DNA from: an uncultured Rikenellaceae bacterium
GTDB taxonomy: Bacteria; Bacteroidota; Bacteroidia; Bacteroidales; VadinHA17
Length of the DNA: 64,000 nucleotides
Direction: 5' to 3'
Assembly (NCBI GenBank): GCA_964639725.1
Contig: CAZXFB010000007.1
Location: 58,177 to 122,176 of the forward strand
The position numbers and the translations under genes are program-made. The notes beneath the pieces were generated by a model. That model made no database searches and was not told the DNA's origin. It was given only the letters and a program-made list of their open reading frames with translations. Every line of letters starts with the position of its first letter. Position 1 is the stretch's first letter. Below, piece after piece: positions 23,897 to 63,149 of this stretch.

Positions 23897-23908
23897 ATGA
23901 TTAATGTT

Positions 23909-35773: not shown

Positions 35774-36877
35774 TCAATATTGGCCATATTCCTCAACAAT
35801 ATCATAAACCAGTTTTATTCTTTTTAATTCTGTTCCCGGAGGTACCTGATCGCCTGCTGATTGCACCAGACGGCTGTTTATTTTTTTCAGATCAAGCCAC
35901 TCTATGACATGTGATATAAATTTCCTTTCATTTGTTGAAGGCAGCCACATAACCGGTGAAATACCTCCCATCAAGATCATGTTGTTACCTGCCTGTTGTC
36001 TTATCTCCAGAGGAGTTAAGTCGCCGGTAGGTTTAGGGGTACAAGCATCAGCAACATCAATCCCTGCCTCAGCAGTAATTCCAATTATTCCGCTTAGCAT
36101 TCCATCGATATGAGTTGATACAGTCTTTCCAGCTTTATGAAAATGTTCAGCAATATCTTTATAATGGTCAAAGCTGTATTTCCTGAATATATCTGGTGAT
36201 TGAACATCGCCCGATAAATTATCAGTGAAAATGATGTGCGGAGCTGGTGATTTGCAATAAAGGGCTACAAGTTCAAGATGCATTTTATTATAGGTACTAA
36301 TATACCTTTCCATTAGTTCAGGATATTCATACAGAGCATAAATTGTATTCTGAACACCCATATAATACGACATTAGTGAACCCAGTCCGGTATATCCAAG
36401 ACTTGGAAATCCTAGACCGACATCGCCTCCAATCAGTTCAATCATCTGCCAGTTATCATACCGGGGTATAAATCTTCTCCGCTCAATTGCATATAACAGG
36501 ATTTGGAGGTCCTTCATGTTTTCTACCATCAGTTTTGCAATGTCCCACGAAAAGCTTACCGGGCTCCATTTTCTTTCCATATAAATCTCACCAATGGGTG
36601 TAATAAATCTTTCAATGGCGCGATCACCTGTCAATTCCCTTTCCCTTACTACATTATCTTCATAAAATTCATCATGCAAACTTCCCACTTCTACATACCA
36701 CCCTGACCTGACCTCCCTGTGAAGGTCAGCTATCTCCTTGGTGCAATTACTAATATTAAATAAGTTCCACTGTTGTCCGCTCTCGGCTCTGAACCAGTGT
36801 CCCAGGTCAGCAAACCATGGAACCCTGTCGGGAGTTTCTCCTTTAAGAACTTTTATCAACCTTTCTCTTTCAGTCAT
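35774..36877 (-). CDS. Uroporphyrinogen-decarboxylase (URO-D)-like family protein
   Basis: N-terminus ERLIKVLKGETPDRVPWF is typical of the URO-D/MtaA-like family. The length is about 367 aa with no leader. The assignment rests on motif resemblance only. Confidence 0.5.
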   Translation of the reverse strand: MTERERLIKVLKGETPDRVPWFADLGHWFRAESGQQWNLFNISNCTKEIADLHREVRSGWYVEVGSLHDEFYEDNVVRERELTGDRAIERFITPIGEIYMERKWSPVSFSWDIAKLMVENMKDLQILLYAIERRRFIPRYDNWQMIELIGGDVGLGFPSLGYTGLGSLMSYYMGVQNTIYALYEYPELMERYISTYNKMHLELVALYCKSPAPHIIFTDNLSGDVQSPDIFRKYSFDHYKDIAEHFHKAGKTVSTHIDGMLSGIIGITAEAGIDVADACTPKPTGDLTPLEIRQQAGNNMILMGGISPVMWLPSTNERKFISHVIEWLDLKKINSRLVQSAGDQVPPGTELKRIKLVYDIVEEYGQY

Positions 36878-36999: not shown

Positions 37000-38325
37000 C
37001 TATCCGAATAACCTGTTAGATTTGCTCCAATGGATCCTTGCAATAAATATGCTTCCATCACTACCATATTTTTCTACCCCTTTAGGTTGCATCCATTCAG
37101 AAGTAGTAACCCAGGTTTCGTCCCTGCTAACATCTGTTACTCCGAAGTTACCCTGTTGTGCTCCCCTGTTAGGTGTTAATGCAATTTCAGTACTGCGGAT
37201 TATACATAACCTGTCAGTATCAACCTGAGCCATAAAAAGAGGAGCCCTGTTTCTGGCAACATGATCATTATTTGCACCTCGCCGTGTATAAACAAGGAAA
37301 AGAGCATCACTGTGAGTGACCCAATGTGCCTGAGTATTATAACTTCCAAGATCAGAATTATCATCAAACTTCCATGATTGTATCGGATCAAAGTTTAATC
37401 CATCCTTACTCCTTGTAACAAACGCTTTTTTATCATTTCGAATTGTCAGAAAAAACTCGTTATTGAATTTTGAAAGTGAAGGTTCATGAAGACCCCTGGT
37501 TTCATCATCAATCTTCAATTCATTGCTATGAGAGAGGTAATGCAGAATTTTTCCATCAAATTTACACCGGAGAACTGTAACTCTTGAGTTTTTACCTAAC
37601 GGTACATAGTATACAGGCAGAAGTATTGTACCATCTTTTTCATCGAATCGTTGTACACATCCGGCACCAGAATCGTGAAATATACCTGTATCCGGCATTT
37701 TAAGTTTCTGCCATTCAGCCCATTCATCTGTATCAGAGTTATAAATAGAAAATGTCGTATCCCGCGGGCGTTTGGCTCCGGGAGTCATAACTTTCCAATC
37801 TTGTGTGTAAGCTACCGTGTGCCCTGTGCCCAGAAGTGTCTTTGTTGCAGCATGCCATTTTGGCCAAAAATCACTTGCTGCAACCGGACGTTGAACACCA
37901 TCAATCACCTCCCAGCGATAGGTCATATTCTTAAGTTCCCCAGGTGTGGTCCATGACTTTCCAAGGTCATCGGTCTTCATTGAAAACATACCCTTGAAAA
38001 CATCACTCCCGGTTAGCTCAGCGGTATTCATCGTCATAATAATTTGAGGTAACCCATTTTTTCCTGCTCCCGGAATAATTCCTGCACGAGGATGTGCCCA
38101 ACATCTTTGACCATCAAACAGTTTAGCGGGTATGTCAAGAGACAGGTTAAAACCCGGTTTACGCTGTTTTACAGATTCATCGGACTGGAACATTCTTCCT
38201 GCTGTCAGTGGCAGAGATAATAATGAAATGCCACTGACAAGAGATTTCTTTATAAAACTACGTCTCTCTATATTAGTATGACCTGAATTTATTTTATTAT
38301 TCCTTTTCATATCAATATTGTTCAT
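37000..38325 (-). CDS. Asp-box beta-propeller protein (family C, Tat-leader copy)
   Basis: Leader ...NIERRSFIKKSLVSGISLLSLPLTAG and motif TDDLGKSWTTP. The C-terminal half parallels 15844-17103. The longest ORF starts at 38373 but overlaps the upstream gene by 32 nt, so Met at 38325 or 38310 is more likely. Confidence 0.65.
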   Translation of the reverse strand: MNNIDMKRNNKINSGHTNIERRSFIKKSLVSGISLLSLPLTAGRMFQSDESVKQRKPGFNLSLDIPAKLFDGQRCWAHPRAGIIPGAGKNGLPQIIMTMNTAELTGSDVFKGMFSMKTDDLGKSWTTPGELKNMTYRWEVIDGVQRPVAASDFWPKWHAATKTLLGTGHTVAYTQDWKVMTPGAKRPRDTTFSIYNSDTDEWAEWQKLKMPDTGIFHDSGAGCVQRFDEKDGTILLPVYYVPLGKNSRVTVLRCKFDGKILHYLSHSNELKIDDETRGLHEPSLSKFNNEFFLTIRNDKKAFVTRSKDGLNFDPIQSWKFDDNSDLGSYNTQAHWVTHSDALFLVYTRRGANNDHVARNRAPLFMAQVDTDRLCIIRSTEIALTPNRGAQQGNFGVTDVSRDETWVTTSEWMQPKGVEKYGSDGSIFIARIHWSKSNRLFG

Positions 38326-38341
38326 AATAAGATCCAAAACA

Positions 38342-39769
38342 TTATTTAAACCTGATAGAGTATAAATCTGCATCCTTCATATAAATACGCAACCGTACAG
38401 GCTTATTTGCCAGTTTTTTTAAACTTTTATTATCTTTCCAGGAGGCAATACCGGCTATCTCATTGCCAACAAGTGATTTTGATTCACTAAAAGAAAAACC
38501 CGTAAATGGCTGACCATTAATATCCTGAATCTCAATCTTAATCTCTCCGGCTACAGAAGTAGAATAGTTTAATTCAAGTTCATCACCTGAAAAAGTAAAT
38601 TGTTTTGTAATCAATTCACCTCCAGTATAAGATGCATTCAAAGAAGTAAAACCGTCGAGCCGCATAGAATAGCGATGAAGATGGGCTGTTGGCTGTGCAT
38701 AATCCTGGTTAACATAGAGAGACATCTCTTCCGGTCCTGTCTGAACAATATTAAGACAAGGATAATTTGTACGTGCTGACCAGTTATTCAAACCTATTCC
38801 TGGGCGAATGAACGACTCCATAAATGTCCGCTCATATCTATTCCCTCCCCGAGTAGTCATAATATACGCATCTGACAATCCTTTGAATTGTGTAGGATCA
38901 ACTTTTAATTTTTTAAGTTGCTCCTCTGTCATTATCTGCCTGTCAGGAATAAATCTAGCACCAATGGAAAGATAAATCTGAGGAGCCCTGAAATAAGGGC
39001 TTGTCTGTTGGGTATAAAGATGCTCAGTTGGAGTATCACCATATGTCATCACAACTGGCTCAGACCAATTGAGAAAGTCTTTGGATGTACTCCTGCTGAT
39101 TCCACGAAATCGTTTATCAGAAAAAATGCGGAAATAACAAACATAGAGTTTTTCACTTTCTGACCAGAAAGAAACGTTTTGAGAATCAAAAGCACCTTTT
39201 CTTATAACTCCTTCATCTTTAATCTTTCTCCAGTGAATACCATCGGGCGAAACAAATGGAATCAAACCCGTTTTTGAATTTCCCCCAAAAGCTTTATATT
39301 TCTGATCAGATGTTATGTCAGGATTGGAATCCAAAAAAGGAGAGAAATTATGGGTTACCGGTTCCGTTAAGAGCACTACATTATTCTGCATTGACCCCTT
39401 AACTTCATTCAGATCCAATATTGGTTTCACCCATTTGATACCATCATCCGACTCGGCATAACATGTTAGCTGTGGACCTGAAATCTCATCCATCCCACGA
39501 TAATAGAGTCGAAATATATCTTTATCCTTTATTATGGTACTGTAAGTACAAAATTTACCCTCCCACGGTTTATCAAAATAAACAACAGCTCCTTCGTCAT
39601 GTGGATGGTGCATAACAATCTTTATGCCTTCAAGTTTATCAATAATATAATAGTCGGTAAAGATCTCCCTGTTATAACCTAACCGGATGATCTCATTTCT
39701 GCCAGTTTGGGCAGACTCTTTAAAACCGGATAATGCAATAAGAATTATTAAAAAGAAGAACTTACTCAT
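38342..39769 (-). CDS. Secreted beta-propeller-like putative glycoside hydrolase, family not identified (family B)
   Basis: Signal peptide present. Paralog of 9382-10995, sharing YRGMD/YRMYY, YAESDDGIKW, SPDGIHW, FDSQNVSFW, HLYTQQTSPYFRAP, RLDGFTS and NKPVRLRIYMKDADLYSIRFK. Confidence 0.55.
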   Translation of the reverse strand: MSKFFFLIILIALSGFKESAQTGRNEIIRLGYNREIFTDYYIIDKLEGIKIVMHHPHDEGAVVYFDKPWEGKFCTYSTIIKDKDIFRLYYRGMDEISGPQLTCYAESDDGIKWVKPILDLNEVKGSMQNNVVLLTEPVTHNFSPFLDSNPDITSDQKYKAFGGNSKTGLIPFVSPDGIHWRKIKDEGVIRKGAFDSQNVSFWSESEKLYVCYFRIFSDKRFRGISRSTSKDFLNWSEPVVMTYGDTPTEHLYTQQTSPYFRAPQIYLSIGARFIPDRQIMTEEQLKKLKVDPTQFKGLSDAYIMTTRGGNRYERTFMESFIRPGIGLNNWSARTNYPCLNIVQTGPEEMSLYVNQDYAQPTAHLHRYSMRLDGFTSLNASYTGGELITKQFTFSGDELELNYSTSVAGEIKIEIQDINGQPFTGFSFSESKSLVGNEIAGIASWKDNKSLKKLANKPVRLRIYMKDADLYSIRFK

Positions 39770-39870: not shown

Positions 39871-40713
39871 TCAATGATCTCCCTCATAATATTCACCTCC
39901 GCAAACTGAAGAATTAACATCATAAATTGAGAGTTCCTTAAACATCAGACGTGCAATCTGGGAATGCCCATTCCCATTTGGATGAAGTGGATCATTTAAC
40001 CAATCCTTATAAACATTAATTGTTGCACTATTTTGAAATGTATCCTGCCAATGGTAATAATTATCAATAAGAATTAGTTTCTCTTTTTCAGCAACCTTCC
40101 TGATTACAGATACATAGTCAGGTAATTTTGTTCTTTCAGGAGATTTTCTGAATATTATCAGGTTTGGAGTATGAAGTATAGGTACCGCTTTCATATCCCT
40201 TATAGCATTAACCAGCAGAATAAGGTTCTTTTCAAATAGTTCAATCTGAATCCTTTCTTTTGAACAATCATTGGTCCCTATCATCAGAGACACAACGTTT
40301 GGCTTGAACTGTTTAATCCTCCACTCCAAATCATCAAGAATAGTTTGAGTTGTATTACCACTAATACCTGTATTGATAATGATATCCCGCATCCTGGACA
40401 ATTCCCACCTGATACGTTCTGCAAAGATCTCAGGATAAGAACGATATCCTTGTGTATGTTTTGCCCCATGGGTTATACTGTCACCTGTAAATAACCAAAT
40501 GATCGGATCTTTTAGTTTTAAGTGACCCGAGATCCATTCATGATCCGGAAGTTCCTTTCCGGATGCAACATTTCTATCATATACTCTTATTTTACTATTG
40601 CCTGCTGCAATCCGTTGAGATTTTGCTGAAAGAGCAAAAGTGAAGGTTGAAAAGTATAAAGATTTCTCAAAGAATCTTCTTCTGGAAATTCTGATCTCTT
40701 TCATACCACTCAT
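39871..40713 (-). CDS. SGNH/GDSL-family esterase with an RR leader (candidate sugar O-acetylesterase)
   Basis: Leader ISRRRFFEKSLYFSTFTFALSA. Block I is LFTGDSITHG, block III is GTND and block V is DPLHPNGNGH. Confidence 0.75.
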   Translation of the reverse strand: MSGMKEIRISRRRFFEKSLYFSTFTFALSAKSQRIAAGNSKIRVYDRNVASGKELPDHEWISGHLKLKDPIIWLFTGDSITHGAKHTQGYRSYPEIFAERIRWELSRMRDIIINTGISGNTTQTILDDLEWRIKQFKPNVVSLMIGTNDCSKERIQIELFEKNLILLVNAIRDMKAVPILHTPNLIIFRKSPERTKLPDYVSVIRKVAEKEKLILIDNYYHWQDTFQNSATINVYKDWLNDPLHPNGNGHSQIARLMFKELSIYDVNSSVCGGEYYEGDH

Positions 40714-40757: not shown

Positions 40758-41849
40758 TCAACGAACAAACCAACGGATTCTGTATTTTCCCTCTTTGCGT
40801 TGAAACTTTAGTGAATAAGGATCAACAATCCATAAGCTGACATTACCATCCGATTTTGGCATCAACCAACCAAAATCCCATTCCTTACTTTTGTATTTTA
40901 AAGGAATGGCAGGTTTAACCCTGACCACTGGCTGTGATGCTGCCATAAATTCTTTTCTACCGGTATAATAATAACATGATCCGCAATGAATAAATACCTC
41001 ATGGTTTATTGTTTCTGTCTTGGCAGGAGACAAATCACTACACAATCCACTAATTCCTACTTTAACCTCTTTCCCATGCTCAAATGCTTCAGCCAGAGCC
41101 TCAATTGAACCTGATAAAACCTTATTGTCGGCACTATTTGAATAAACCTCTTCCCAGCTATCGCATACCCAGAATTTATATATATCAAAGTCATATACAA
41201 AATTGCTGCTTGGTGCGTTTGTACCAGCATCCCAGCTATCGAACTGGTGATACTTAGGCATGTCACTATGATCATCAATTGGGGATTGTCCAAAGTCTTC
41301 TGAGGCAGGTATTCCATCCAGATATGGACGGGCAATAGCCTGGTCAGCATTCTGATTGTAGAGAAAGAATGACATTGATGGTCTCGGACCAAAACCTTTT
41401 GGAAGATCAATAGGTTGACGAAGATTTATTATACCGGCAACCCAGCGGTTATCCAATAAGTAAGTGATCCTGAAATCAGCTACTTCCCTGATTAGTTCAG
41501 GATCTGAAGATTTAGTGTCAATATGCTCATTATGATGAAATTCGGTATAGATCCTCAGATCTGCACCACGTCGGATAGCTGCAACCAGCATTTCCTCACT
41601 GCCTGATATTACCTTCCTGTCGCGGTCAAGTACCAGCATACATTTCCAGTTACTGTTTTCATTCATTTTGTTGTTCCCATTTAAGAGTTCCCCAGGTGAC
41701 ATATTTCCTCTGAATGTTGATGCCATATTTCCATAATTATTTACGGAATCTGACTCTCTATTAAGAAATGCAATTCTTTGGTTTCCCGTTCTGTTCCGGC
41801 AACCTAAAAGTAAAAGAATTAGCAAACAAAAAGCCAGTGTTCTATTCAT
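40758..41849 (-). CDS. Lipoprotein of unknown function
   Basis: Lipobox LLLLGC and an uninterrupted 363-aa ORF inside the co-directional array. I recognise no motif. Confidence 0.5.
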   Translation of the reverse strand: MNRTLAFCLLILLLLGCRNRTGNQRIAFLNRESDSVNNYGNMASTFRGNMSPGELLNGNNKMNENSNWKCMLVLDRDRKVISGSEEMLVAAIRRGADLRIYTEFHHNEHIDTKSSDPELIREVADFRITYLLDNRWVAGIINLRQPIDLPKGFGPRPSMSFFLYNQNADQAIARPYLDGIPASEDFGQSPIDDHSDMPKYHQFDSWDAGTNAPSSNFVYDFDIYKFWVCDSWEEVYSNSADNKVLSGSIEALAEAFEHGKEVKVGISGLCSDLSPAKTETINHEVFIHCGSCYYYTGRKEFMAASQPVVRVKPAIPLKYKSKEWDFGWLMPKSDGNVSLWIVDPYSLKFQRKEGKYRIRWFVR

Positions 41850-41920: not shown

Positions 41921-43012
41921 CTATTTATATATCCAGTCTAGGTCCATTCTTACCAGAGTCGATCCCCAGTGAAACCAGTCTGAGTAGCATAATAATACAT
42001 AATTATCAATAAAATGGAGAGCAGGATAGCAATAGACACCATCTGGTTTGTCGGCAAGGACCTTATTTTTCATCCATGTTTTCCCATCATCTTTTGAAAC
42101 AGCAATATTTAATGGGGTTCGTTTCTGGTTGAGTCCATTATCATTCCATACCATAAGCAGATCGCCCGTTGAAGGGATTCTTGTTATAATCGCAGGGGAA
42201 CAGGGAGATTTAATGTTGCTGGGTTCAACAGCACTCCATGTTTCGCCTTTATCCTTAGAATAAGAGAAATATTGAACTCCGGCAGTTGTACGTATATACA
42301 TAAGTATTTCACCATTATTTAACTCTACCATACCAGGCTCCTGTGTAACAATGGCAGCTGGATTTTCTACTTCCTTACTTGCTTTCCAGTTTCGACCATT
42401 ATCATCAGAATAATAACTCCACAAACGTCCCACTGCAGCAGCTTTTGTTTCACCCGGGCTCTGATGCATTGCAACAGCTAATAAAAGCCGGCCACTTTTA
42501 AGTTGAATTACGCGATTATTATTTAGCACAAAATAAGCTGCTTTATCTGTTATACAGGGTAAAGGATCACTCCATGTTTTAGCTTCATCATTCGATAAAC
42601 GTATTAATGGAATACAATCTGTTTCAGAATTCTTTTTAAGATAGAACAAGGCTATTTCACCATTCTGTAACCTCAGTAGTGAGACTGACATGACATTCAT
42701 AGTTCCTTCCTGCCCGACAATTTTCACATCCTCTTCTGACCATGTTTTACCTTTATCGTCTGAGTATCTTCCTGCCAGAAAGGCACTTGCATTATCATCC
42801 ATTGAAGTACCGGTATAATGGCTATAAATAAAAAGAATTCTGCCATCCTTCAAAGTGATAAAGTCACCTTCACTATTTCGCGGATTATCAGCAACAGGGA
42901 GAAGCTTAAGTACATCTTCCATTCCCTGAGCTACTTCATTACTCTTACTGGCAGACCTGTTCCCGCAACCATAACCTATTAGTATTAACAAACAGAGAGC
43001 TGATATTTTCAT
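41921..43012 (-). CDS. Sialidase-like glycosidase, family A (lipoprotein), tandem copy 4
   Basis: DNPRNSEGDFITLKDGRILFIYSHYTG, SDDKGKTW, GTMNVMSVSLLRLQNGEIALFYL, CITDK, TRIPSTGDL, QKRTPL, SKDDGKTW and YCYPALHF. I chose Met at 43012 (MKISALCLLILIGYGC). The longest ORF reaches 43084. Confidence 0.8.
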   Translation of the reverse strand: MKISALCLLILIGYGCGNRSASKSNEVAQGMEDVLKLLPVADNPRNSEGDFITLKDGRILFIYSHYTGTSMDDNASAFLAGRYSDDKGKTWSEEDVKIVGQEGTMNVMSVSLLRLQNGEIALFYLKKNSETDCIPLIRLSNDEAKTWSDPLPCITDKAAYFVLNNNRVIQLKSGRLLLAVAMHQSPGETKAAAVGRLWSYYSDDNGRNWKASKEVENPAAIVTQEPGMVELNNGEILMYIRTTAGVQYFSYSKDKGETWSAVEPSNIKSPCSPAIITRIPSTGDLLMVWNDNGLNQKRTPLNIAVSKDDGKTWMKNKVLADKPDGVYCYPALHFIDNYVLLCYSDWFHWGSTLVRMDLDWIYK

Positions 43013-43099
43013 AATATCAGAGAAATGAATACAGGCATCAATATGTGCTGTTCCTGGTTCGCAAATGGCAGAGATCTTTTTCATTTTCTTCTATTTATT

Positions 43100-44200
43100 T
43101 TAATTATAAATCCAATCAAGACTTATTCTAGCTACGTCCAAAACTGCCCAATTTTTCCCTTTAGATGTGCTGCCGGCAGTATAGCCCAATAAAACATTAT
43201 CCCCGGTAAAATGAATTGCAGTATAGCAATAACGCCCTTCAGGATTCTCTTCAATACTTTTAATATTATTCCATGTGATTCCTTCATCTCTTGAAATGGC
43301 AATTTTTAATGGAGAACGTATCTGGTTTAAACCATTGTCATCCCAAACCAGAAGTAAATCACCGGTAGAGGGTATTCTTGCTATTGATGCAGGAGCAACC
43401 GGAGAATTTATTTTACTTCTTTCTGAAGGACTCCAGGATTCTCCTTTATCTTTTGAATAGGATATATACTGTACTCCCGCATTAGTGCGTATTAACATAA
43501 ATATATCACCATTTTTCAGCTCAACCAGAGCCGGTTCCTGAGTCAGTACATTATCCGGATTAGGGACTTCAGCACTGGACCTCCAGCTTCGACCATTATC
43601 ATCAGAATAGTAACCCCACAGACGATCTGTATAGAGTTTTGATTCTTCTGAAACAGCAAAAAGAATCCGTCCGTTACTTAATTGGATAACATGATTATTG
43701 TGAAGGCAAAAGTAACCTTTCTTATCAGTGATGCATGGTCTGGGATCGCCCCAGCTAACAGCTTCATCATCTGATATTCTAATAATGGGAATACAGTCTG
43801 TTTCAGAATTTTTCCTTAAATAAAACAACGCTATTTCGCCATTTTGTAACCTGAGAAGTGATACAGACATTACATTCATTGTACCTTCCTGGTCAACAAT
43901 TTTCTTATCATCGGTGGTCCAGCTTTTACCCTGGTCACTTGAGTATCTCCCAGCCAGGTATGCATTCGCATTGTCATTATCTGAAGAACCAGTATATCTG
44001 GTAAAAACAAATAATAACCTTCCATCCTTAAGAGTAATAAAGTCACCCTCACTATTTCGTGGATTATCAAGACCTGACTCGAGTCTGAGAACAATCTCCT
44101 TTCCACTTGCTGAACTTTTATTTTCTCCCTGTCTTGTCTTACACCCTGAATTGATAAGTATTAATATTAAAATAACAAATATCTTAATCACTCCTGCCAT
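43100..44200 (-). CDS. Sialidase-like glycosidase, family A (lipoprotein), tandem copy 3
   Basis: DNPRNSEGDFITLKDGRLLFVFTRYTG, SSDQGKSW, GTMNVMSVSLLRLQNGEIALFYL, CITDK, ARIPSTGDL, SRDEGITW and YCYTAIHF. I chose Met at 44200 (MAGVIKIFVILILILINSGC). The longest ORF reaches 44251. Confidence 0.8.
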   Translation of the reverse strand: MAGVIKIFVILILILINSGCKTRQGENKSSASGKEIVLRLESGLDNPRNSEGDFITLKDGRLLFVFTRYTGSSDNDNANAYLAGRYSSDQGKSWTTDDKKIVDQEGTMNVMSVSLLRLQNGEIALFYLRKNSETDCIPIIRISDDEAVSWGDPRPCITDKKGYFCLHNNHVIQLSNGRILFAVSEESKLYTDRLWGYYSDDNGRSWRSSAEVPNPDNVLTQEPALVELKNGDIFMLIRTNAGVQYISYSKDKGESWSPSERSKINSPVAPASIARIPSTGDLLLVWDDNGLNQIRSPLKIAISRDEGITWNNIKSIEENPEGRYCYTAIHFTGDNVLLGYTAGSTSKGKNWAVLDVARISLDWIYN

Positions 44201-44267
44201 TTTAAATATTACAAATGTGTTTGATTTGCGGTTTATTAATAAGTTTGGCATTTTACAAATAAATCAA

Positions 44268-45356
44268 TTATTTATATATCCAGTCTATGCTTATTTTTTT
44301 TACGGTAACTCCTGTTGCTGTCCAGTCGAAATAGCCTAAAAGGAGATCATTACCGGTAAAATGAATTGCGCTGTAGCAATATGACCCTTGGGGATCATTT
44401 TCAAGAATCTTATTATTAATCCAGGTTTTTCCATCATCTTTAGAAATCGCCAGATTAAGAGGAGTTCTGTTCTGATCCACACCATTATCATTCCAAACAA
44501 CAAGAATATCTCCAGTTGACGGAATTCTTGCCATTGATGCAGGAGAGCAGGGTGATTTAAGTGAACTGGGTTCAACCTGGCTCCATGTTTCTCCTTTATC
44601 TTTTGAATATGAGAAATACTGAACCCCTGCAGTAGTCCGGAGAAACATCAGGATATCACCATTTTTTAATTCAATTAAGCCAGGTTCCTGAGTGATAATC
44701 TGGCCTGGATTTGGGACTTCAGAACTAGACTTCCATGTCCTTCCATTATCATCTGAATAATAATTCCAGATCCGGCCTATTCTATAAAAGGTTTTATCAC
44801 CGGGGATTCCATGCATTGCAACAGCAAGCATAAGTCTGCCGTTCTTTAATTGGATCACCCTGTTATTATTAAGTACAAAATAACCCTCTTTATCAGTTAT
44901 ACATCTTGAAGGTTCACTCCAGGTTTTTGCTTCATCGGTTGAAATCCTTATCATCGGGATACAATCAGTAGTAGAATTCTTCTTCAGGTAGAAGAATGCT
45001 ATCTCACCATTTTGTAACCTGAGGAGAGAGACTGACATAACATTCATTGTTCCTTCCTTGTCAAGAATTTTCGTATCAGCCGTTGTCCAGGTCTTTCCAT
45101 TATCGGATGAATATCTTCCTGCAAGAAAGGCACTGGCATGATCATCATTTGAAGTTCCTGTGTAATGGGAGTATACATATAGAATTCTACCATCCTTCAG
45201 GGTAATAAAGTCACCCTCGCTATTACGGGGATTGTCAGGGCCTGTTGTGAGTTTAAGCACATCCTCAACTCCAGAGCTCTCGCTTTTGATTCCGGCAGGT
45301 TTATTACGGCAACTTCCGCTGATTACAATAAGGAAACAGAGTGCCAATATTTTCAT
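44268..45356 (-). CDS. Sialidase-like glycosidase, family A (lipoprotein), tandem copy 2
   Basis: DNPRNSEGDFITLKDGRILYVYSHYTG, SSDNGKTW, GTMNVMSVSLLRLQNGEIAFFYL, CITDK, ARIPSTGDI, SKDDGKTW and YCYSAIHF. I chose Met at 45356 (MKILALCFLIVISGSC). The longest ORF reaches 45446. Confidence 0.8.
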   Translation of the reverse strand: MKILALCFLIVISGSCRNKPAGIKSESSGVEDVLKLTTGPDNPRNSEGDFITLKDGRILYVYSHYTGTSNDDHASAFLAGRYSSDNGKTWTTADTKILDKEGTMNVMSVSLLRLQNGEIAFFYLKKNSTTDCIPMIRISTDEAKTWSEPSRCITDKEGYFVLNNNRVIQLKNGRLMLAVAMHGIPGDKTFYRIGRIWNYYSDDNGRTWKSSSEVPNPGQIITQEPGLIELKNGDILMFLRTTAGVQYFSYSKDKGETWSQVEPSSLKSPCSPASMARIPSTGDILVVWNDNGVDQNRTPLNLAISKDDGKTWINNKILENDPQGSYCYSAIHFTGNDLLLGYFDWTATGVTVKKISIDWIYK

Positions 45357-45525
45357 AAAAACAGATGGATGAATAAGAGTGGCAATCTTGAACATGTTAT
45401 TAAGGTTTTTTAAATTCATTTTATTCGATTTAAAGTTAATAATCAAAGAATCCTAGTTCGTACCCGGAATATTGCTTAATGACAGTAAGTGATTACCCTG
45501 CTCACTGCTCCCAACTTACTATTCA

Positions 45526-46683
45526 CTATTTATAAATCCAATCCAAACTTAGTTTTGTTATCTGGGTAACCTGCAGACCGGTACGCTTAGGGCGGTTCCC
45601 CGCACAATGTCCTAACAAAACATCTTTCTCTGTAAAATGTATGGCAATATAACAATACCATCCATCGGGGTCAGTTTCGATGTTTTTGATCTTTTCCCAG
45701 GTTGTGCCTTCGTCCTTAGATATTGCCACTGTGAGTGGTGTACGTTTGCCTTTAATTGCCGGATCATCTCCTCCATTATTGTTCCAAACCAGCAAAAGAT
45801 CGCCTGTAGAAGGGATTCTTTCTATTGATGCCGGAGATACCGGGGATTTAATATTGCTTCGTTCAACAGGGCTCCAGGTCTCCCCCTTATCTTTTGAATA
45901 TGACTTACACTGTACTCCTGCATCTGATCTTATTAGCATCAATATATCTCCGTTCTTTAGTTCAACCAGACCTGGTTCCTGAGTCAGTACTTTTTCAGGA
46001 TTTGAGACTTCAATCCCGGATTTCCAGCTGCGCCCATTATCATCTGAATAATAGCTCCATAAACTTCCCTTATTTAATTGTGATCCTTCCTGAGTATTAT
46101 AAAGATTTACTGCCATCAGAATACGTCCATTCTGTAACTGGATTACACGATTGTTATTAAGTACAAAATAACCTGCTTTATCTGTTATACATGGTATAGG
46201 ATCGCTCCAGGATTTCGCATCATCATTTGAAAACCGAACCATCGGTATACAATCTGAATCTGAGTTTTTCTTCAAATAGAACAAAGCTATCTCATCATTT
46301 TGCATTCTTAAAAGTGATACTGACATAACATTCATTGTACCTTCCCTTTCAACAATTTTCACATCTTCGTTGGTCCATGTTTTTCCACCATCAGATGAAA
46401 ATCTTCCGGCAAGAAATGCGGGATCATTATCTCCACCGGAAGCACCAGTATAGTGGGTATAAATGAAGAGAATACGATTATCCTTTAAAGCTATAAAGTC
46501 TCCTTCACTGTTACGTGGATTATCAAGACCTGGCTCAAGCCTAAGAGCAATCTCCCTGCCCTTATCCGGACTACCACATCCTGTATTCACCAGGATCAAC
46601 AAAACAGCTACTAATAAGATTATTAAAGGTATTGAAAGAGAGTTGCCGGAATCTGAATCGTGAAGTTTTATTTTTTTGTCCAT
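45526..46683 (-). CDS. Sialidase-like glycosidase, family A (lipoprotein), tandem copy 1
   Basis: DNPRNSEGDFIALKDNRILFIYTHYTG, SSDGGKTW, GTMNVMSVSLLRMQNDEIALFYL, CITDK, ERIPSTGDL, GKRTPL, SKDEGTTW and YCYIAIHF. Lipobox LVNTGC. Confidence 0.8.
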   Translation of the reverse strand: MDKKIKLHDSDSGNSLSIPLIILLVAVLLILVNTGCGSPDKGREIALRLEPGLDNPRNSEGDFIALKDNRILFIYTHYTGASGGDNDPAFLAGRFSSDGGKTWTNEDVKIVEREGTMNVMSVSLLRMQNDEIALFYLKKNSDSDCIPMVRFSNDDAKSWSDPIPCITDKAGYFVLNNNRVIQLQNGRILMAVNLYNTQEGSQLNKGSLWSYYSDDNGRSWKSGIEVSNPEKVLTQEPGLVELKNGDILMLIRSDAGVQCKSYSKDKGETWSPVERSNIKSPVSPASIERIPSTGDLLLVWNNNGGDDPAIKGKRTPLTVAISKDEGTTWEKIKNIETDPDGWYCYIAIHFTEKDVLLGHCAGNRPKRTGLQVTQITKLSLDWIYK

Positions 46684-46720
46684 ATTAAATTAAATTTAAT
46701 TGTTTTTAACTATTAATCAA

Positions 46721-46790
46721 CTGAAACTCCTCACTGCAATTCACCGCCTAAGCTTTAAAGTGTCAGCGGGAAGCGGTGAGGAGTTTTCAG
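46721..46790 (-). promoter_or_regulatory. Long imperfect hairpin between SusD and the first family A gene
   Basis: CTGAAACTCCTCACTGC (46721-46737) pairs with GCGGTGAGGAGTTTTCAG (46773-46790). The enclosed roughly 35-nt segment contains sub-pairings (TTCACCGC/GCGGGAA and the palindrome CTTTAAAG). No clear U-tract follows on the minus strand. Confidence 0.35.
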
Positions 46791-46881
46791 ATAATTTAAT
46801 TTCCTGAATTTTTTATCTTCCTTAGGTTAATGCGAAAATCAATTACCCATCAACATTTAGAAGATCATAACTTATAATATA

Positions 46882-48360
46882 TCAGTATCCGGGATTTTGT
46901 ATCACTTTTGGTTCAATAGCCAGTGTTGAGAGCGCTATTGGAAATAGCTCCAGGTAAGTTTTCCCTACTTTGGTTGTAAGTGATGGCACCAATTCGAAAG
47001 CTTTTCCAAATCTAAGCAGATCCCACCAGTATTTTCCTTCAAAAGCTGTTTCAAAAAGCCTTTCCTTCAGGATAGCAGCATCGTTTGCTGCCTGTGTACC
47101 ATTAACAAAAACGTGACTTGAATAACTTGTACCATAAGCACGTTTACGTATTAATTCCATTTCGGCTGAAGGGTCCTGTCCAAGGGCATTTTTAGCTTCA
47201 GCGATCATTAATAAGATATCACCATACCTGTAAATTACCCTGTCATCATACCAGTATCTTAAGCCTCCTATTAATGTACCATGATATTTGTAAACAATGG
47301 AAGAGTAGTAAGTTTTAACACCGCCCGGGTACGCATATATTACTCTGTAAGAAGCATCCCTGCGCTGATCATCAGCAGTAAATTGTGCCTGTATATGAGG
47401 TTCCACTTCAAGTACGGAATATCCGTTTGCTCCTTTGAGTATCTCTTTGGTAGCATCATCAATAGTAGCAGGAATATATGCAGGGTAGAGCCACATATGG
47501 TTATAAGGCTGTATATCACCAGTCTCAAGATCAGCATGTTTTACTGCAAAAATAACCTCTTTGTTGCCTTTATTTCCATAATCAAATATGCTGGCATAAT
47601 TAGCCAGAAGCGTGACATCTGTTGTTTTTATATCATTGAGAGCAGTAAGTGCAGCATTAAAGTCAGCTGCTCCTCCACTCTCTCTTTTCCCGGTCCAGAG
47701 ATATACTTCTGCTTTGAGAGCGTTAGCTGCAGGTTTTGAAAAGATATTCCTTCCGTCGGGGTATGTGTTATTTGGATAAAGTGCAAGGGCGTCATCAATA
47801 TCCTTTTTGATGAATTTGAATATATCAGCTTTAGGGCTTCTCTCCCTTTGAACTTTAATGGGATCAAATCCAAGAGTAGGTTCATCAACAAGAACAAGGT
47901 CGCCCCATGTTTTTGTCATAACAAAATAACAAAATGCCCTCATTGTATGAGCCTGTGCAAGAATATTGTTTTTGTTATCTTCCGAAAGAAATTTAATACC
48001 CGGCACAAATTTCAAGAGTAAATTTGCGTCATGAATTACAGTGTACATACCCTGCCATGTTGAGAGCGCAGAACTTGATGTTAATGTATTATAGAACATT
48101 TCAAGTTCATTCTGATTGTTACCTGCAACTCCATTTCCGAGTGTCTGACTTCTCATTTCACCCCAGTAATAGAGATCCTGTCCCAGATTGCGGAACCTTC
48201 CATACATTCCATAAAGAGCACCTTTAGCATCATTCTCTGTCTGCCAGAAAGAGGAATTGGATATCTGGCTTATTGGTGCCAGATCCAGATCTTTCGTGCA
48301 GGAGACTATCATAAAGACAGCTATTGAAAAGCTTGTCAATATTTTATTTATTCTTTTCAT
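46882..48360 (-). CDS. susD: SusD/RagB-family outer-membrane glycan-binding lipoprotein
   Basis: Lipobox MIVSCTKD and N-terminal SFWQTENDAKGALYGMY. C-terminal blocks LKERLFETAFEGKYWWDLLRFGKA and FPIALSTL are present. It lies immediately downstream of SusC. Confidence 0.9.
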   Translation of the reverse strand: MKRINKILTSFSIAVFMIVSCTKDLDLAPISQISNSSFWQTENDAKGALYGMYGRFRNLGQDLYYWGEMRSQTLGNGVAGNNQNELEMFYNTLTSSSALSTWQGMYTVIHDANLLLKFVPGIKFLSEDNKNNILAQAHTMRAFCYFVMTKTWGDLVLVDEPTLGFDPIKVQRERSPKADIFKFIKKDIDDALALYPNNTYPDGRNIFSKPAANALKAEVYLWTGKRESGGAADFNAALTALNDIKTTDVTLLANYASIFDYGNKGNKEVIFAVKHADLETGDIQPYNHMWLYPAYIPATIDDATKEILKGANGYSVLEVEPHIQAQFTADDQRRDASYRVIYAYPGGVKTYYSSIVYKYHGTLIGGLRYWYDDRVIYRYGDILLMIAEAKNALGQDPSAEMELIRKRAYGTSYSSHVFVNGTQAANDAAILKERLFETAFEGKYWWDLLRFGKAFELVPSLTTKVGKTYLELFPIALSTLAIEPKVIQNPGY

Positions 48361-48413
48361 AATTTTTATATTAATGATTTATTTATTGCGATATATCAGT
48401 GTGTTTCCAACAA

Positions 48414-51400
48414 TTATAGGGTCACATTAACACCAAAAATAATGTTCCTGGGAATAGGAAATCTGCCATATGTCCGGCCACCTTCTTCAGGGTTAACTCC
48501 CCTGTATTTAGTGAAATAGTGCAGGTTGTTGCCGGTCACATTTACTCTAAGGGCCGATATTTTAGCCTTCTGCAGAAGATTCTTTGGAAGATCGTATGAA
48601 AGTGTTAACTCCCTTAAAGAGAGAAAATCACCTTTTTCATACAGGAAAGATGTATAATTTCCGCCCCTGTAAAGGTTATTACTTGCCTGCTGATCGGCCC
48701 AGTAATACCTTGGAATATCAGTTACATCTCCTTGTTTCTGCCATGATCTCAGGAGGTCCTTTGACAATCCGTTATCGCCCTGGAACTGGCCAATAAGTGT
48801 ACCATAGGTGTAATTATAGATTGTCTGCCCAAGGGTATAGTCCATACGAACATTAAGTGATAAGTTTTTATAAGAGAATATGCTACCAAAACCACCAGTA
48901 GCTGTTGGATACTGATTACCCACATAAACCATGTCTTTGGAATCAATAGTATTATTGCCATCGGCATCAAGGAAGTCAACATCACCCCCACGTTTCTTTT
49001 GAAAATCACCAGTTTGCGGTACCTGGGTATCCAGAGGAGCATTAGCTGCTTCAGCATCTGTTGCAAAAACTTTAAGGTGTTTGTAAGCATAATAATCTCC
49101 CATTGTGCCTCCTTCCTGCAAACCACCTTTCCATGCGTAGTCACCTATTGAAGCATCCCATACGTAGAATCCTCCAACCCTGTTCTTCTCAACCCCATTA
49201 TTGGGGAGTTTAAGAATTTTATTCTTGACTGTTGATGCGTTAAAGGATATATCCCACTGAAATTCAGATGTTCTGGGCAAAATACTAGCTCTCAATTCAA
49301 CTTCCACACCTTTGTTTTCAAGGCTGCCTGAGTTAGTAAGTATACTGCCAAATCCAGTAGATTGAGGTAGTGCAAGACTTGCCAGGAGGTTATCAGTGAC
49401 ACGACGGTAGATATCAAAAAGAATCGAAATTCTTTCATCCAATACGCCGAGATCTATACCAAAATCGAGAGTTTTTGATTGTTCCCATTGTAGCTCGGAG
49501 TTTGCAAGGGAAGTGTTCTGAACCATTGCTATACCATTGTACTTTGATCCGACACTATAACTTCCCTGAGCTGTATAGTATCCCAATCCACTTATATTAC
49601 CATTTACACCATAACTGGCTCTTAACTTTAACCTCAGTAATTTTTCAGGAAGCATTTTCCAGAACTCTTCATTATAGACATTCCAACCAGCTGAAATACC
49701 CGGGAAAAATCCCCATTTATTTCCGGAACCCAGATTAGATGCTCCATCATATCTTGCATTAAGGCTTAAAAGATATTTTTCATTAAAATCGTAGTTGATC
49801 CTTCCAAAATAACCATAAATTAACTGTTCTGCTTCAGTTCCGCCAACACTAACCGGAGTAGCAGATGCATTAAGGGTTGAAATAAGATCAGTAGCAGCCC
49901 CTTTTCCTGCAGCACTTAAGCTGGAATTCATTGTGCCAAAATATGAGAAACCAGCTTTGGCATCAACATGATGTACATTAATATCTTTTGTATAAGAGAA
50001 AATAGCATCAGCTTGTTTCTGAAGAACTTTTGAAAAAGAACCATTGGCATTACGATCAGTATTATATGCTTTAGGACCGTTAAAATATGCTCTTTCAAAG
50101 TATCTTGACGAATACATTGTCTGATACAATGAAACAAGTGGATCAAAGGATAAACCAGGAAGAATCTCCCAATGCGATCCAAGTGATACAGATAATTTAT
50201 CGGAACTGTTTTTTGTATCAACATAACCTACAACGTATTCGGGATTACCCAGAGAGGTATTTACACCTGAGGCGAGTGTCCCGTCCTCATATGTATATTT
50301 AGCTGTTGGAGGGATCCCCTGGGTTCTTCCGAATAAGTTAGTACCTGTGGGAGGTTCATTGTTGGATGAATTTGTATAGATAATTCGTCCCGATACTCTT
50401 AATTTGTCCCTAACCTTCAGATCGCCATTTAAATGGGCACTAAGCCTTTTATACTTTGAAGTGATTACAATTCCATCCTGGTCAAGGTATCCTATCCCGG
50501 CACTAAATGTTGCAGCATCTGTTCCTCCTGATGCAGACAATGAGTGGTTATGTGCAATACCAGTCTGGAATAGTTTAGACTGGAAATCGGTATCAGAGAA
50601 GATAATGGTTTTATTTGGGTCAGCAGGATCAGCCATACTTTGCCACCCTTCATTTAATTTATATTTATTCAGATCAGTCAGGTACTGAGTAGAAAATGCT
50701 GTAAGATTTGTGAGGTCATTCCCGGTACCTGCTGAGTTGGCCTGTGCAAGCATTGAAAGCTGTGCCGGTTTTCGTTCAGCAGATGCCATAATTCCCATTC
50801 TCTGAAAATAGATATAATCTCTGGCATTGAGAAGGTTCAGGTCATCAACATTCTGTGAAGTGGTCAGATCATATTTATAGTTAATCTGAGTTTTTCCAGA
50901 CTTACCAGACTTTGTAACGATAATAACAACGCCATTAGAACCACGCGCACCGTAAATTGATGTAGCAGCGGCATCCTTCAACACCTGTAAAGATTCTATA
51001 TCTGACTGATCCAGGTCATTCATATTTTCCCTGATAACACCATCAACTATGTATAAAGGTGAAGCGCCATTAGGATTATTAATCGAAGTTCCTCCTCTTA
51101 TTATTATACGAGGTGAGGCACCAGGCATACCAGTTGTGGTCTGAACCTGCAAACCAGCAATGGCACCCTGCAATGATGAAGCAACGTTTGAATATGAAAC
51201 GTTGGCAAGTACTTTTGTATCGAGTTTGGAAATTGATGTTGTAAGTCGTGAACGAGTCTGCTGTCCGTAACCAACAACCACAACTTCATTCAATCCTACT
51301 AGGCTTTCAGTAAGTGTGACATCATAGACATTTCCGGAACCCAAAGCTATCTCTTTTGATTCCATACCAACAAATGTAAAAACAAGGGTCTTCGAATCAG

Positions 51401-51641
51401 GTGTAACTGATAGTGAAAATTTACCATCAATACCGGTGATTGTACCTACAGTGGTGCCTTTCACAACAATAGAAACTCCTGGTAGCGGATTATTATCAGA
51501 TCCGGTTACAGTACCTGTAATTGTTTTTTGTGCAAAAACCATAGAGGTACTTAGCATGAAAAACATCAGAGCCAGAAGAATCTTTCCTGCGTCTGATGTA
51601 GCCGACAAAAAATGGCATTTGAACGTTTGTAGTTTTTTCAT
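48414..51641 (-). CDS. susC: SusC-family TonB-dependent outer-membrane transporter
   Basis: The carboxypeptidase-regulatory-like N-domain reads ITGTVTGSDNNPLPGVSIVVKGTTVGTITGIDGKFSL. The plug region has VVVGYGQQ, IESLQVLKDAAATSIYGARGSNGVVIIVTK. It is a 1075-aa barrel with a typical C-terminal ...IFGVNVTL. Confidence 0.95.
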   Translation of the reverse strand: MKKLQTFKCHFLSATSDAGKILLALMFFMLSTSMVFAQKTITGTVTGSDNNPLPGVSIVVKGTTVGTITGIDGKFSLSVTPDSKTLVFTFVGMESKEIALGSGNVYDVTLTESLVGLNEVVVVGYGQQTRSRLTTSISKLDTKVLANVSYSNVASSLQGAIAGLQVQTTTGMPGASPRIIIRGGTSINNPNGASPLYIVDGVIRENMNDLDQSDIESLQVLKDAAATSIYGARGSNGVVIIVTKSGKSGKTQINYKYDLTTSQNVDDLNLLNARDYIYFQRMGIMASAERKPAQLSMLAQANSAGTGNDLTNLTAFSTQYLTDLNKYKLNEGWQSMADPADPNKTIIFSDTDFQSKLFQTGIAHNHSLSASGGTDAATFSAGIGYLDQDGIVITSKYKRLSAHLNGDLKVRDKLRVSGRIIYTNSSNNEPPTGTNLFGRTQGIPPTAKYTYEDGTLASGVNTSLGNPEYVVGYVDTKNSSDKLSVSLGSHWEILPGLSFDPLVSLYQTMYSSRYFERAYFNGPKAYNTDRNANGSFSKVLQKQADAIFSYTKDINVHHVDAKAGFSYFGTMNSSLSAAGKGAATDLISTLNASATPVSVGGTEAEQLIYGYFGRINYDFNEKYLLSLNARYDGASNLGSGNKWGFFPGISAGWNVYNEEFWKMLPEKLLRLKLRASYGVNGNISGLGYYTAQGSYSVGSKYNGIAMVQNTSLANSELQWEQSKTLDFGIDLGVLDERISILFDIYRRVTDNLLASLALPQSTGFGSILTNSGSLENKGVEVELRASILPRTSEFQWDISFNASTVKNKILKLPNNGVEKNRVGGFYVWDASIGDYAWKGGLQEGGTMGDYYAYKHLKVFATDAEAANAPLDTQVPQTGDFQKKRGGDVDFLDADGNNTIDSKDMVYVGNQYPTATGGFGSIFSYKNLSLNVRMDYTLGQTIYNYTYGTLIGQFQGDNGLSKDLLRSWQKQGDVTDIPRYYWADQQASNNLYRGGNYTSFLYEKGDFLSLRELTLSYDLPKNLLQKAKISALRVNVTGNNLHYFTKYRGVNPEEGGRTYGRFPIPRNIIFGVNVTL

Positions 51642-51908
51642 AGATTAAATAATTAGGGTTATTCCTGCTTAATTTGACTAAGCTGGCATTTTCGGAAATG
51701 AGTACTTAAAATTTAGAAGAGTTATATAGAAGAAAAAAGAATTCATCATAAAAAAATAAATTCCTGAATATTCCATTAAAAATAAAGGAATTCAGCACTC
51801 TTAAATGATACTTTCCACTTAATAAATGGTATTTTCATACAATTTTTTGGAGATTATTTAAATCATATTTAATATTTTTGAATGTAAATACCATATAATT
51901 GCAATAAC

Positions 51909-53681: not shown

Positions 53682-53798
53682 TTTAAGATATTTTAATTTA
53701 TAAATATTACATGATATTTGTTTAACTGACATTTCAAATTATTTTTTAAATGTAGTATATCTGTATAAATCAAAAATATTTATTTTAATTAAATATTG

Positions 53799-63130: not shown

Positions 63131-63149
63131 ATTTTCTTTTTTAAAATTA

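Follow-up and report, generated by a model that had tools for sequence, protein, structure and literature searches.

The closest described relatives of the locus reported here are sialidases of family GH33 and the Bacteroidota systems in which such enzymes operate. GH33 exo-alpha-sialidases, among them BTSA (4bbw), BDI_2946 (4fj6) and the enzymes of Micromonospora viridifaciens (1eur) and Cutibacterium acnes (7lbu), are six-bladed propellers with five Asp-boxes. SiaC of Capnocytophaga canimorsus, a sialidase lipoprotein, belongs to a Sus-like system and faces the periplasm (PMC5080379). In Bacteroidota sialic-acid loci (NanOU, NanH, NanS/EstA, NanM), sialidase-fold genes and a GDSL esterase come after a SusC/SusD pair. 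We examined a stretch of 64,000 nucleotides from an uncultured Rikenellaceae bacterium (contig CAZXFB010000007.1, positions 58,177 to 122,176; assembly GCA_964639725.1), referred to as the window, in which four tandem sialidase-fold genes (T1 to T4) directly follow a SusC/SusD pair and two related copies (D1 and D2) are dispersed. The analysis indicated that these six genes are ancient GH33-like paralogs, which probably encode retaining exo-glycosidases of diverged specificities for a terminal 2-keto-3-deoxy acidic sugar.

Comparison with the GH33 exo-alpha-sialidases detected the same propeller and Asp-boxes (template modelling [TM] scores of 0.70-0.74), a shared catalytic Glu, Tyr and two of the three arginines, and a conserved Asp in the acid/base loop. 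The family differs from them in being only 14-23% identical, in having NPRNSEGD in the place of FRIP, in lacking a carbohydrate-binding module or inserted domain and an NCBIfam equivalog, and in a window without the NanA/NanE/NanK route. Like SiaC, the members are sialidase-fold lipoproteins without a K-(D/E)2 signal alongside a SusC/SusD-type importer (PMC5080379), but SiaC occurs singly and is a canonical sialidase of host glycans, whereas the family has four to seven diverged paralogs and environmental bacteria as carriers. NanM and NanA-family lyases of the Bacteroidota sialic-acid loci also occur in related loci of this family; in contrast to those loci, sialidase-fold genes number at least 15 over the 64 kb of the window, which also adds DegT proteins exported by the twin-arginine translocation (TAT) pathway, GFO/IDH/MocA and DUF1080 proteins, an HpcH aldolase and a galactonate-type MFS transporter. 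Dfer_1899 of Dyadobacter fermentans (5hx0), from another environmental member of the Bacteroidota, has a single-domain sialidase fold of similar size (TM score of 0.68-0.71; 19-20% identity) but, as a structural-genomics protein, gives no functional guidance. Tandem diverged glycosidase paralogs in a polysaccharide utilization locus (PUL) are a familiar Bacteroidota route to a broader substrate range, and the GH33 fold and its probable mechanism are known. The new part is modest: an uncharacterised subfamily, a well-dated paralog set common to several orders and an unusual density of sialidase-fold genes.

The genes of the unit and the further family members in the window are as follows.
48414-51641, minus strand: SusC-like TonB-dependent transporter, first gene of the unit (Pfam CarbopepD_reg_2, Plug)
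46882-48360, minus strand: SusD-like lipoprotein (Pfam SusD_RagB, SusD-like_3), syntenic in related loci L001-L003, L005 and L009-L012
45526-46683, minus strand: T4, sialidase-fold lipoprotein, 385 aa (BNR_2 E 4e-32)
44268-45446 (open reading frame [ORF]; called gene 44268..45395), minus strand: T3, sialidase-fold lipoprotein, 392-aa ORF (BNR_2 E 2e-36)
43100-44251 (ORF; called gene 43100..44200), minus strand: T2, sialidase-fold lipoprotein, 383-aa ORF (BNR_2 E 5e-31)
41921-43084, minus strand: T1, sialidase-fold lipoprotein, 387 aa (BNR_2 E 3e-35)
14674-15822, minus strand: D2, dispersed member with a lipobox (BNR_2 E 1e-34)
8073-9251, minus strand: D1, dispersed member, leader without Cys (BNR_2 E 1e-33)
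3783-4856, minus strand: seventh, distant relative (BNR_2 E 5e-31)

The four genes T4 to T1 lie directly downstream of SusC/SusD, all on the minus strand. The T3 ORF begins at a TTG codon, and its product in public data (P0001) has 375 aa, which is the numbering used for residues below; the T2 product as called (P0121) has 366 aa. An MKISALC sequence at 43012 is a likely alternative start of T1. A first-pass annotation of this DNA had grouped the four genes and the two dispersed copies by shared peptide blocks, and both its coordinates and its blocks were exact: NPRNSEGDF, MNVMSVSLLR, DCIP, CITDK and RIPSTGD are present in 6/6 copies. Also correct was its statement that MNVMSVSLLR is encoded by different codons in the tandem copies, as the four codon strings (29-30 nt) were found verbatim on the minus strand at 42671, 43850, 45018 and 46307 and have only synonymous differences. 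Pairwise identity among the six copies was 55-68% for protein and 61-70% for DNA (55-63% for the D2 protein versus the others), and all six matched Pfam BNR_2 far beyond chance (E of 1e-31 to 1e-36). That annotation recognised neither the likeness to sialidases nor the seventh relative, which is 36-40% identical to the six copies (blastp E of 1e-61 to 2e-78) and has TRNSEA in the place of PRNSEG, nor at least seven further sialidase-fold genes in the window, whose GC content is 38.5%.

An AlphaFold model of T3 (mean predicted local distance difference test [pLDDT] of 91.3; predicted TM score [pTM] of 0.85) had 23 strands arranged as six four-stranded blades. The top 50 matches listed in a Foldseek search of the PDB (TM scores of 0.67-0.74; 14-23% identity) were GH33 sialidases except for 4j9t, which was engineered on the scaffold of the M. 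viridifaciens sialidase, and Dfer_1899, which is uncharacterised; the nearest solved structures by sequence were likewise GH33 sialidases. Five Asp-boxes of the pattern S-x-D-x-G-x-T-W were located in strand 3-4 loops of T3 (SSDNGKTW, STDEAKTW, SDDNGRTW, SKDKGETW and SKDDGKTW). Catalytic residues were examined by HMM and profile alignments to BTSA, BDI_2946, pneumococcal NanB and a canonical GH33 gene of the window itself:
32793-33923, minus strand: canonical GH33-type sialidase, used as an internal reference (YRIPSL...GDAPNN; Pfam BNR_2, BNR_3; NCBIfam neuraminidase E 2e-16)
E237, R253, R310 and Y341 aligned exactly with the catalytic Glu, two of the three Arg and the nucleophile Tyr. The acid/base Asp of sialidases is on the strand 2-3 loop of blade 1, and D85 lies one residue after the GDAP Asp (acid/base) of the window GH33 and within two residues of NanI D291. 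All five residues were invariant in 54 family members, and the window GH33 matched the family alignment with a probability of 98.9% in hhalign. In our reading, these genes represent an uncharacterised subfamily of the sialidase superfamily, the sialidase-type catalytic machinery of which appears intact.

The age of the duplications and the constraint on each copy were examined by the method of Nei and Gojobori (NG86) over 325 ungapped core codons. Between paralogs, nonsynonymous divergence (dN) was 0.20-0.31 and synonymous divergence (dS) was 1.5 to >4, which represents synonymous saturation, with a dN/dS ratio (ω) of at most ~0.16; for each copy versus its own orthologs in other genomes, dN was 0.11-0.17, dS was >2 (saturated) and ω was <0.1, all ω values being upper-bound estimates only because of the saturation. 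Maximum-likelihood estimates of dS (3-30) were not meaningful as numbers for the same reason, and hence the NG86 values were used as upper bounds on ω. The ω values were far from the value of ~1 that decay would produce, and each copy has been kept under strong constraint since duplication. The longest exact nucleotide match between any two copies was 26 nt, indicating an absence of recent gene conversion. Colinear matches to window positions 43380-51729 (99.96-99.98%) were obtained in three independent Logan assemblies, built from different sequencing runs, an agreement that spans SusC, SusD, T4, T3 and the start of T2 and argues against an assembly artefact for this portion; the T2-T1 junction is without independent assembly support, as the Logan contigs end inside T2. 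These contigs (L073, L074 and L075) all stop within T2, less than 190 bp apart (window positions 43380, 43500 and 43565). Recent gene conversion or assembly collapse was rejected on the basis of the 26-nt longest match together with the three agreeing assemblies.

Orthologs in other genomes provided a second line of evidence for old duplication. Each of T1 to T4 was closer to orthologs in other Bacteroidota orders (70-83% identity) than to its neighbours in the array, and these orthologs often stand in the same gene order after SusC/SusD. T4 orthologs (78-83%) were detected in Daejeonella, Chitinophagaceae, Cyclobacteriaceae, Mariniphaga and Prolixibacteraceae; T3 orthologs (73-81%) directly follow the T4-type gene in several T4-carrying genomes; T1 orthologs were 72-81% identical; and a Bacteroidales metagenome-assembled genome had adjacent T2-type (76%) and T1-type (72%) genes. 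The order SusC-SusD-T4-T3 recurs in Daejeonella, Chitinophagaceae, Cyclobacteriaceae and Bacteroidales genomes, and the orders T2-T1 and T3-T2-T1 recur in other contigs. Homologs of SusC, 60-82% identical, stand at the head of the syntenic loci, and the synteny of the SusC/SusD-sialidase unit is kept in at least eight other genomes. A JGI 99-kb contig carries AraC, SusC, SusD, three adjacent sialidase-like genes (378, 370 and 383 aa) and a GDSL esterase; the middle gene is the T2-like P0123, and the lengths of the flanking genes match those of the T3-like P0029 and the T1-like P0059, each of which is on record for a contig of this size. Since the copies have their own orthologs in other orders, the duplications are older than the spread, be it vertical or lateral, that took the locus into several Bacteroidota orders. 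Saturated dS, low ω, the lack of conversion tracts and the ortholog clades thus bear out the first-pass view of old duplicates under purifying selection as opposed to recent amplification.

Neighbour-joining trees recovered the T1, T2 and T3 ortholog groups with 88-100% bootstrap values, and in the first tree those T4 orthologs that are close (78-83% identity) grouped at 100%; in the resampled tree, only 10% of replicates united a looser T4 set (at least 68% identity, including a copy from Pedobacter at 68%). T1 was the sister type of T3 (86-98%), and D2 joined T1+T3 in 66% of bootstraps; T1+T3 (+D2) form a derived clade with a 6-residue deletion. T2 was the rarest and most divergent type, with six database proteins passing its classification threshold of at least 68% identity. 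T4 was the best conserved and commonest type, usually the one directly after SusD, and its long blade-6 loop and W338 are also found in Acidobacteria relatives; it is taken to be the ancestral type and is the most widespread one. An origin of the array by doubling of a two-gene unit (B-A-B-A) was also considered. The two highest pairwise similarities were those of T4/T2 and T3/T1, and both T2 and T4 have the long blade-6 loop and 'AG' at 357/358, but a T2+T4 clade was recovered in 0/200 bootstraps and the scheme was rejected; the shared features are ancestral, because they are also present in the Acidobacteria relatives. The T4 orthologs (80-83%) and SusC/SusD (61-81%) were very similar across Sphingobacteriales, Chitinophagales, Cytophagales and Bacteroidales (L001-L003, L009, L012). 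This similarity seems to be above the expectation for vertical descent and suggests lateral spread of the whole unit.

Differences between the copies were then related to the catalytic pocket by sorting 167 sequences into T1-T4 types and comparing the consensus residues of the types. Asp-boxes lie in strand 3-4 loops, on the face opposite the active site (PMC2716378), and hence the strand 4-to-1 and strand 2-3 loops were taken as the active-site face. With faces assigned from DSSP strand order and propeller conventions rather than from model coordinates, the type consensus differed at 51/83 positions of the active-site face versus 26/91 of the Asp-box face (odds ratio, 4.0; p=1.7e-5). Positions with type-specific conservation numbered seven on the active-site face, six in strands and none on the Asp-box face (p=0.005). 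Residue 338, three before the nucleophile Tyr, was V, R, S and W in T1, T2, T3 and T4, respectively, and T2 had clade-specific N176H, R179H, G207D and S284A differences together with a 6-residue deletion in the blade-3 loop. The copies also differ in length, at the loops joining strands 2 and 3 in blades 3, 5 and 6, while the aligned catalytic residues were the same in all copies. These results support, but do not prove, a divergence in specificity around a common catalytic core. The first-pass annotation had proposed to check whether variable residues surround the pocket or are scattered; by loop topology, which is an indirect measure, they would lie around it, and subfunctionalisation is consistent with the data without being proven by them. 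The array provides a clean, well-dated case of diversification, in which per-copy ortholog groups extend across orders and the differences are concentrated in the loops assigned to the active-site rim.

The leaders and spacing of the genes were examined for cellular location and co-expression. Lipoboxes could be read in five of the six copies (T1, LIGYG-C; T2, LINSG-C; T3, VISGS-C; T4, LVNTG-C; D2, LIISG-C), whereas the D1 leader, MAETETYSRKWLFLYSFIIIFLLSGLLGYSRGK, has no Cys anywhere and thus no lipobox; the first-pass statement that all copies have lipobox leaders needs this correction. A K-(D/E)2 or Q-A-(D/E)2 sequence just after the lipidated Cys is a Bacteroidota surface-export signal (PMC5080379). 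The residues that follow the Cys in the five lipobox copies are GNRSA, KTRQG, RNKPA, GSPDK and NSQPE, and the signal is in none of the copies, so that the lipoproteins probably face the periplasm; of the two locations first offered, surface or periplasm, the latter is the more likely. Spacers of 15-16 nt separate T3 from T2 and T2 from T1, and a sequence scan found no minus-strand terminator-like site inside the array. A regulator gene is divergent from SusC, an arrangement also present in the JGI 99-kb contig:
51909-52778, plus strand: AraC-family regulator (Pfam HTH_18, AraC_binding)
The short spacers, the lack of an internal terminator and the divergent AraC gene suggest one transcription unit starting at SusC. 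A scan for sigma-70 promoters performed no better than on shuffled sequences, the sigma-70 consensus being inapplicable to Bacteroidota promoters. Features of a PUL are therefore present, namely SusC/SusD, T4-T1 and a GDSL esterase on the same strand with an AraC regulator nearby.

These results suggested the following mechanism. SusC/SusD would import oligosaccharides into a periplasm faced by the T1-T4 products, which are probably lipid anchored and whose genes appear to be co-transcribed with SusC/SusD. The enzymes would remove a terminal sialic-acid-like nonulosonic or ulosonic acid from the imported oligosaccharides by retaining exo-cleavage, with the arginines holding the carboxylate, Tyr341/Glu237 forming the nucleophile pair and Asp85 serving as the acid/base. 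As the aligned catalytic residues are invariant and the loops assigned to the rim have diverged in a clade-specific, conserved manner, the four enzymes probably act on one class of sugar and differ in the linkages, neighbouring sugars or decorations that they accept. The data establish the paralogy, its age, purifying selection, the fold, the conservation of catalytic residues and the synteny, from which activity, the identity of the sugar, cellular location and diverged specificity are inferred.

Several observations weigh against this reading. The FRIP motif (F/Y-R-I-P, at the start of blade 1) is not present, and 54/54 aligned members have an invariant NPRNSEGD(F) instead. R57 of this block is invariant but lies 2-3 positions off the canonical first Arg in the profile alignment; it is a plausible first arginine of the triad. 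No NCBIfam model scored above cut-off for the family, public records label relatives only as 'sialidase family protein', and a literature search found no characterisation of this subfamily or locus type. Matches to DHDPS/NanA, NanE and NanK/ROK, the enzymes that mark a canonical sialic-acid catabolic (nan) cluster, were absent among the 47 window ORFs of at least 150 aa that were scanned. The selection argument uses ω values that are upper bounds, the residue faces follow from conventions of the fold, and loop variation could partly represent relaxed constraint instead of an adaptive change in specificity. The array also defines a large, uncharacterised sialidase-like subfamily, with thousands of database members, all of which have NPRNSEGD for FRIP and are annotated simply as 'sialidase'.

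The identity of the sugar was considered from gene context, for which the following window genes are relevant.
39871-40713, minus strand: GDSL/SGNH esterase with a twin-arginine leader, a conserved companion of the array (Pfam Lipase_GDSL_2 E 6e-26)
34939-35730, minus strand: HpcH/HpaI-type 2-keto-3-deoxy-acid aldolase (Pfam HpcH_HpaI E 2e-19)
13289-14578, minus strand: MFS transporter of the sugar-acid (D-galactonate) subfamily (MFS_1 E 7e-53; best NCBIfam match, TIGR00893)
20458-21894, plus strand, and 57674-59053, 59078-60448 and 60479-61843, minus strand: four DegT/DnrJ/EryC1-family pyridoxal phosphate (PLP) sugar aminotransferases
The GDSL esterase follows the sialidase-like genes in L002, L003, L005, L011, L012, L076 and the JGI 99-kb contig. 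Best NCBIfam matches of the aldolase were to HpaI and 2-dehydro-3-deoxyglucarate aldolases, all below cut-offs, and homologs of the MFS transporter (60-79% identical) were found in L005 and L010. The window also encodes a KduD-like SDR, amidohydrolase-/deacylase-like genes and a GH78 rhamnosidase. In Pedobacter heparinus and Larkinella harenae, a T4-type gene is accompanied by a GntR regulator, two DHDPS/NanA-family lyases, GDSL esterases, a NanM-type mutarotase, an AstE/AspA-type deacylase, a PLP enzyme, RidA, an SDR and an MFS transporter. Three tandem copies were also found on another Bacteroidota contig, where a GDSL esterase, NanM and four additional sialidase-fold genes come after them, and the relatives in Acidobacteria and Clostridia (51% and 36% identity, respectively) are flanked by DHDPS genes. 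This context fits the release and breakdown of a sialic-acid-like 2-keto-3-deoxy acidic sugar, probably with acyl or amino decorations.

The most serious competing explanation, to which we assign a rather low probability, is that the copies are ordinary exo-alpha-sialidases acting on N-acetylneuraminic acid (Neu5Ac) of eukaryote-type sialoglycans and differ in their preference for alpha-2,3, alpha-2,6 or alpha-2,8 linkages or in tolerance of O-acetylation. Every structural neighbour of known function is a Neu5Ac sialidase, the public annotation of relatives points the same way, and NanM, DHDPS-family lyases and GDSL esterases, which are classic companions of sialic-acid use, occur in the related loci. 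Against this stand the absence of FRIP, the low identity to characterised GH33 enzymes (14-23%) and the presence of a separate canonical GH33 gene (32793-33923) in the window. Family carriers were not host-associated taxa but Bacteroidota and Acidobacteria from soil, freshwater and wastewater. Furthermore, the window ORFs scanned had DegT proteins, deacylase-like genes, the HpcH aldolase and the galactonate-type MFS transporter in place of NanA, NanE and NanK, and the related loci add the AstE/AspA deacylase, PLP enzyme and RidA, a set that suggests a different or more decorated amino ulosonic acid. The canonical GH33 gene, the environmental carriers and the unusual downstream genes therefore lower the odds of plain Neu5Ac as the target.

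A more specific proposal, which we put forward tentatively and consider possible though not probable, is that the family consists of hydrolases for bacterial-type nonulosonic acids (pseudaminic, legionaminic or related di-N-acyl sugars, or Kdn), with paralogs tuned to different stereoisomers, N-acyl groups or linkages, within an undescribed degradation locus widely shared among environmental Bacteroidota. Sugars of bacteria that resemble sialic acid reportedly occur widely in the extracellular matrices of microbes (PMC8053191), and a literature search found no degradation route for them. If the proposal were true, esterases, deacylases, TAT-exported aminotransferases and oxidoreductases would form a periplasmic pathway that dismantles microbial glycans rich in nonulosonic acids. 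Cultured carriers (Pedobacter heparinus, Daejeonella sp. JGW-45, Maribellus sp. YY47, Terrimonas sp. NS-102 and Larkinella harenae) make the released acidic sugar directly testable.

Redundant copies, kept for dosage or robustness and with loop differences that reflect neutral drift in exposed regions, were judged improbable. Such a scheme would accommodate the identity of the aligned catalytic residues and of most of the core in all copies, the generally weak constraint on exposed propeller loops and the range of one to four copies after SusD between genomes. However, redundancy would be expected to lead to gene conversion or loss, yet dS was saturated and conversion tracts were lacking. Each type was 70-83% conserved across orders with ω of <0.1 and a maintained relative order in the array. 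Moreover, several positions, such as residue 338, were fixed within clades and different between them, and variation was enriched on the inferred active-site face compared to the equally exposed Asp-box face.

Use of the sialidase fold for other chemistry, as in GH93 arabinanases, GH143 DHA-hydrolases and PL42 rhamnose-glucuronate lyases, seemed very improbable. The BNR_2 superfamily is functionally diverse, the PL42 lyase 7esn gave a very weak sequence match (E 0.04) and a GH78 rhamnosidase is present in the window, but the carboxylate-binding arginines and the Tyr/Glu pair are conserved in exact alignment with GH33, and the best structural matches of known function were all GH33. Least probable of all, and hardly credible, were non-catalytic surface glycan-binding lipoproteins of the SusE/F type that reuse the fold, since, although genes directly after susD often encode such proteins and the position and lipoprotein leaders of the array would suit them, the catalytic Glu, Tyr, two Arg and acid/base-region Asp were invariant in 54 members, a surface-export signal was not detected in any copy and D1 and D2 are away from any SusC/SusD pair.

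Two further features were detected next to the array.
46720-46796, minus strand: strong RNA hairpin in the SusD-T4 spacer (minimum free energy of -35 kcal/mol; z = -6.7 versus shuffles)
40758-41849, minus strand: lipoprotein between T1 and the GDSL esterase, 363 aa (leader LLLLG-C)
The hairpin was unique in the window and matched no Rfam family; its arm, ACTCCTCACCGCTT.CCGCT, was also present after SusD in the related Bacteroidales loci L009, L076 and L077. It may act as an attenuator or transcript stabiliser that separates SusC/SusD from the enzyme genes. The lipoprotein had no Pfam or NCBIfam match and no counterpart among the syntenic loci examined.

Elsewhere in the window, at least nine sialidase-fold genes beyond the six were detected, belonging to several distinct families and giving ~15 or more in 64 kb.
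28-1119: sialidase-fold gene, probably cut by the window start
1156-2496: sialidase-fold gene
2551-3798: sialidase-fold gene
3783-4856: the seventh relative described above
6208-7464: sialidase-fold gene
12136-13245: sialidase-fold gene
15844-17103: sialidase-fold gene
32793-33923: the canonical GH33 gene
37000-38373: sialidase-fold gene
Other paralog pairs in the window were 6208/12136 (66% identity), 15844/37000 (44%) and 9382/38342 (38%, no Pfam match). Several neighbouring genes had no NCBIfam match above cut-off.

Members of the DegT/DnrJ/EryC1 family are normally cytoplasmic and biosynthetic. Three of the four DegT genes in the window are in tandem (39-63% mutual identity for the four), and all four products have twin-arginine leaders (SRRKFI, SRREFV, TRRNFI and TRRRFV), apparently for periplasmic export, which is unusual for a family of that location. 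The exported proteins may carry out periplasmic deamination of amino-sugar glycosides. Twin-arginine leaders were also observed in the GDSL esterase, an Amidohydro_2 protein (31669-32601), a 308-aa protein (4940-5866), the 457-aa sialidase-fold protein (37000-38373), a TIM-barrel protein (22970-23896) and the GFO/IDH/MocA protein GFO423 (23909-25180). The number of such leaders points to an extensive periplasmic pathway of proteins that would be exported folded or loaded with cofactor.

The regions 18355-20282, 22970-25180, 34011-34934 and 52878-53732 encode two DUF1080 '3-keto-disaccharide hydrolase' proteins, a TIM-barrel protein that resembles xylose isomerase and is exported by TAT, and oxidoreductases of the GFO/IDH/MocA type, one of which has a TAT leader. 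A gene set of this kind is associated with oxidative (3-keto) glycoside cleavage, and a DUF1080 gene adjoins the family relative in the Acidobacteria locus L027. One further gene lies beside the HpcH aldolase:
35774-36877, minus strand: URO-D / MtaA-CmuA-like (methyltransferase-type) gene
This gene could relate to methylated sugars. At 62153-63944 on the minus strand, at the right end of the window, the presence of a second SusD-family gene (partial, or with a called start that is too far downstream) and of a lipoprotein with a BT_3987-like N-terminal domain indicates that another SusC/SusD unit lies upstream of the DegT tandem.

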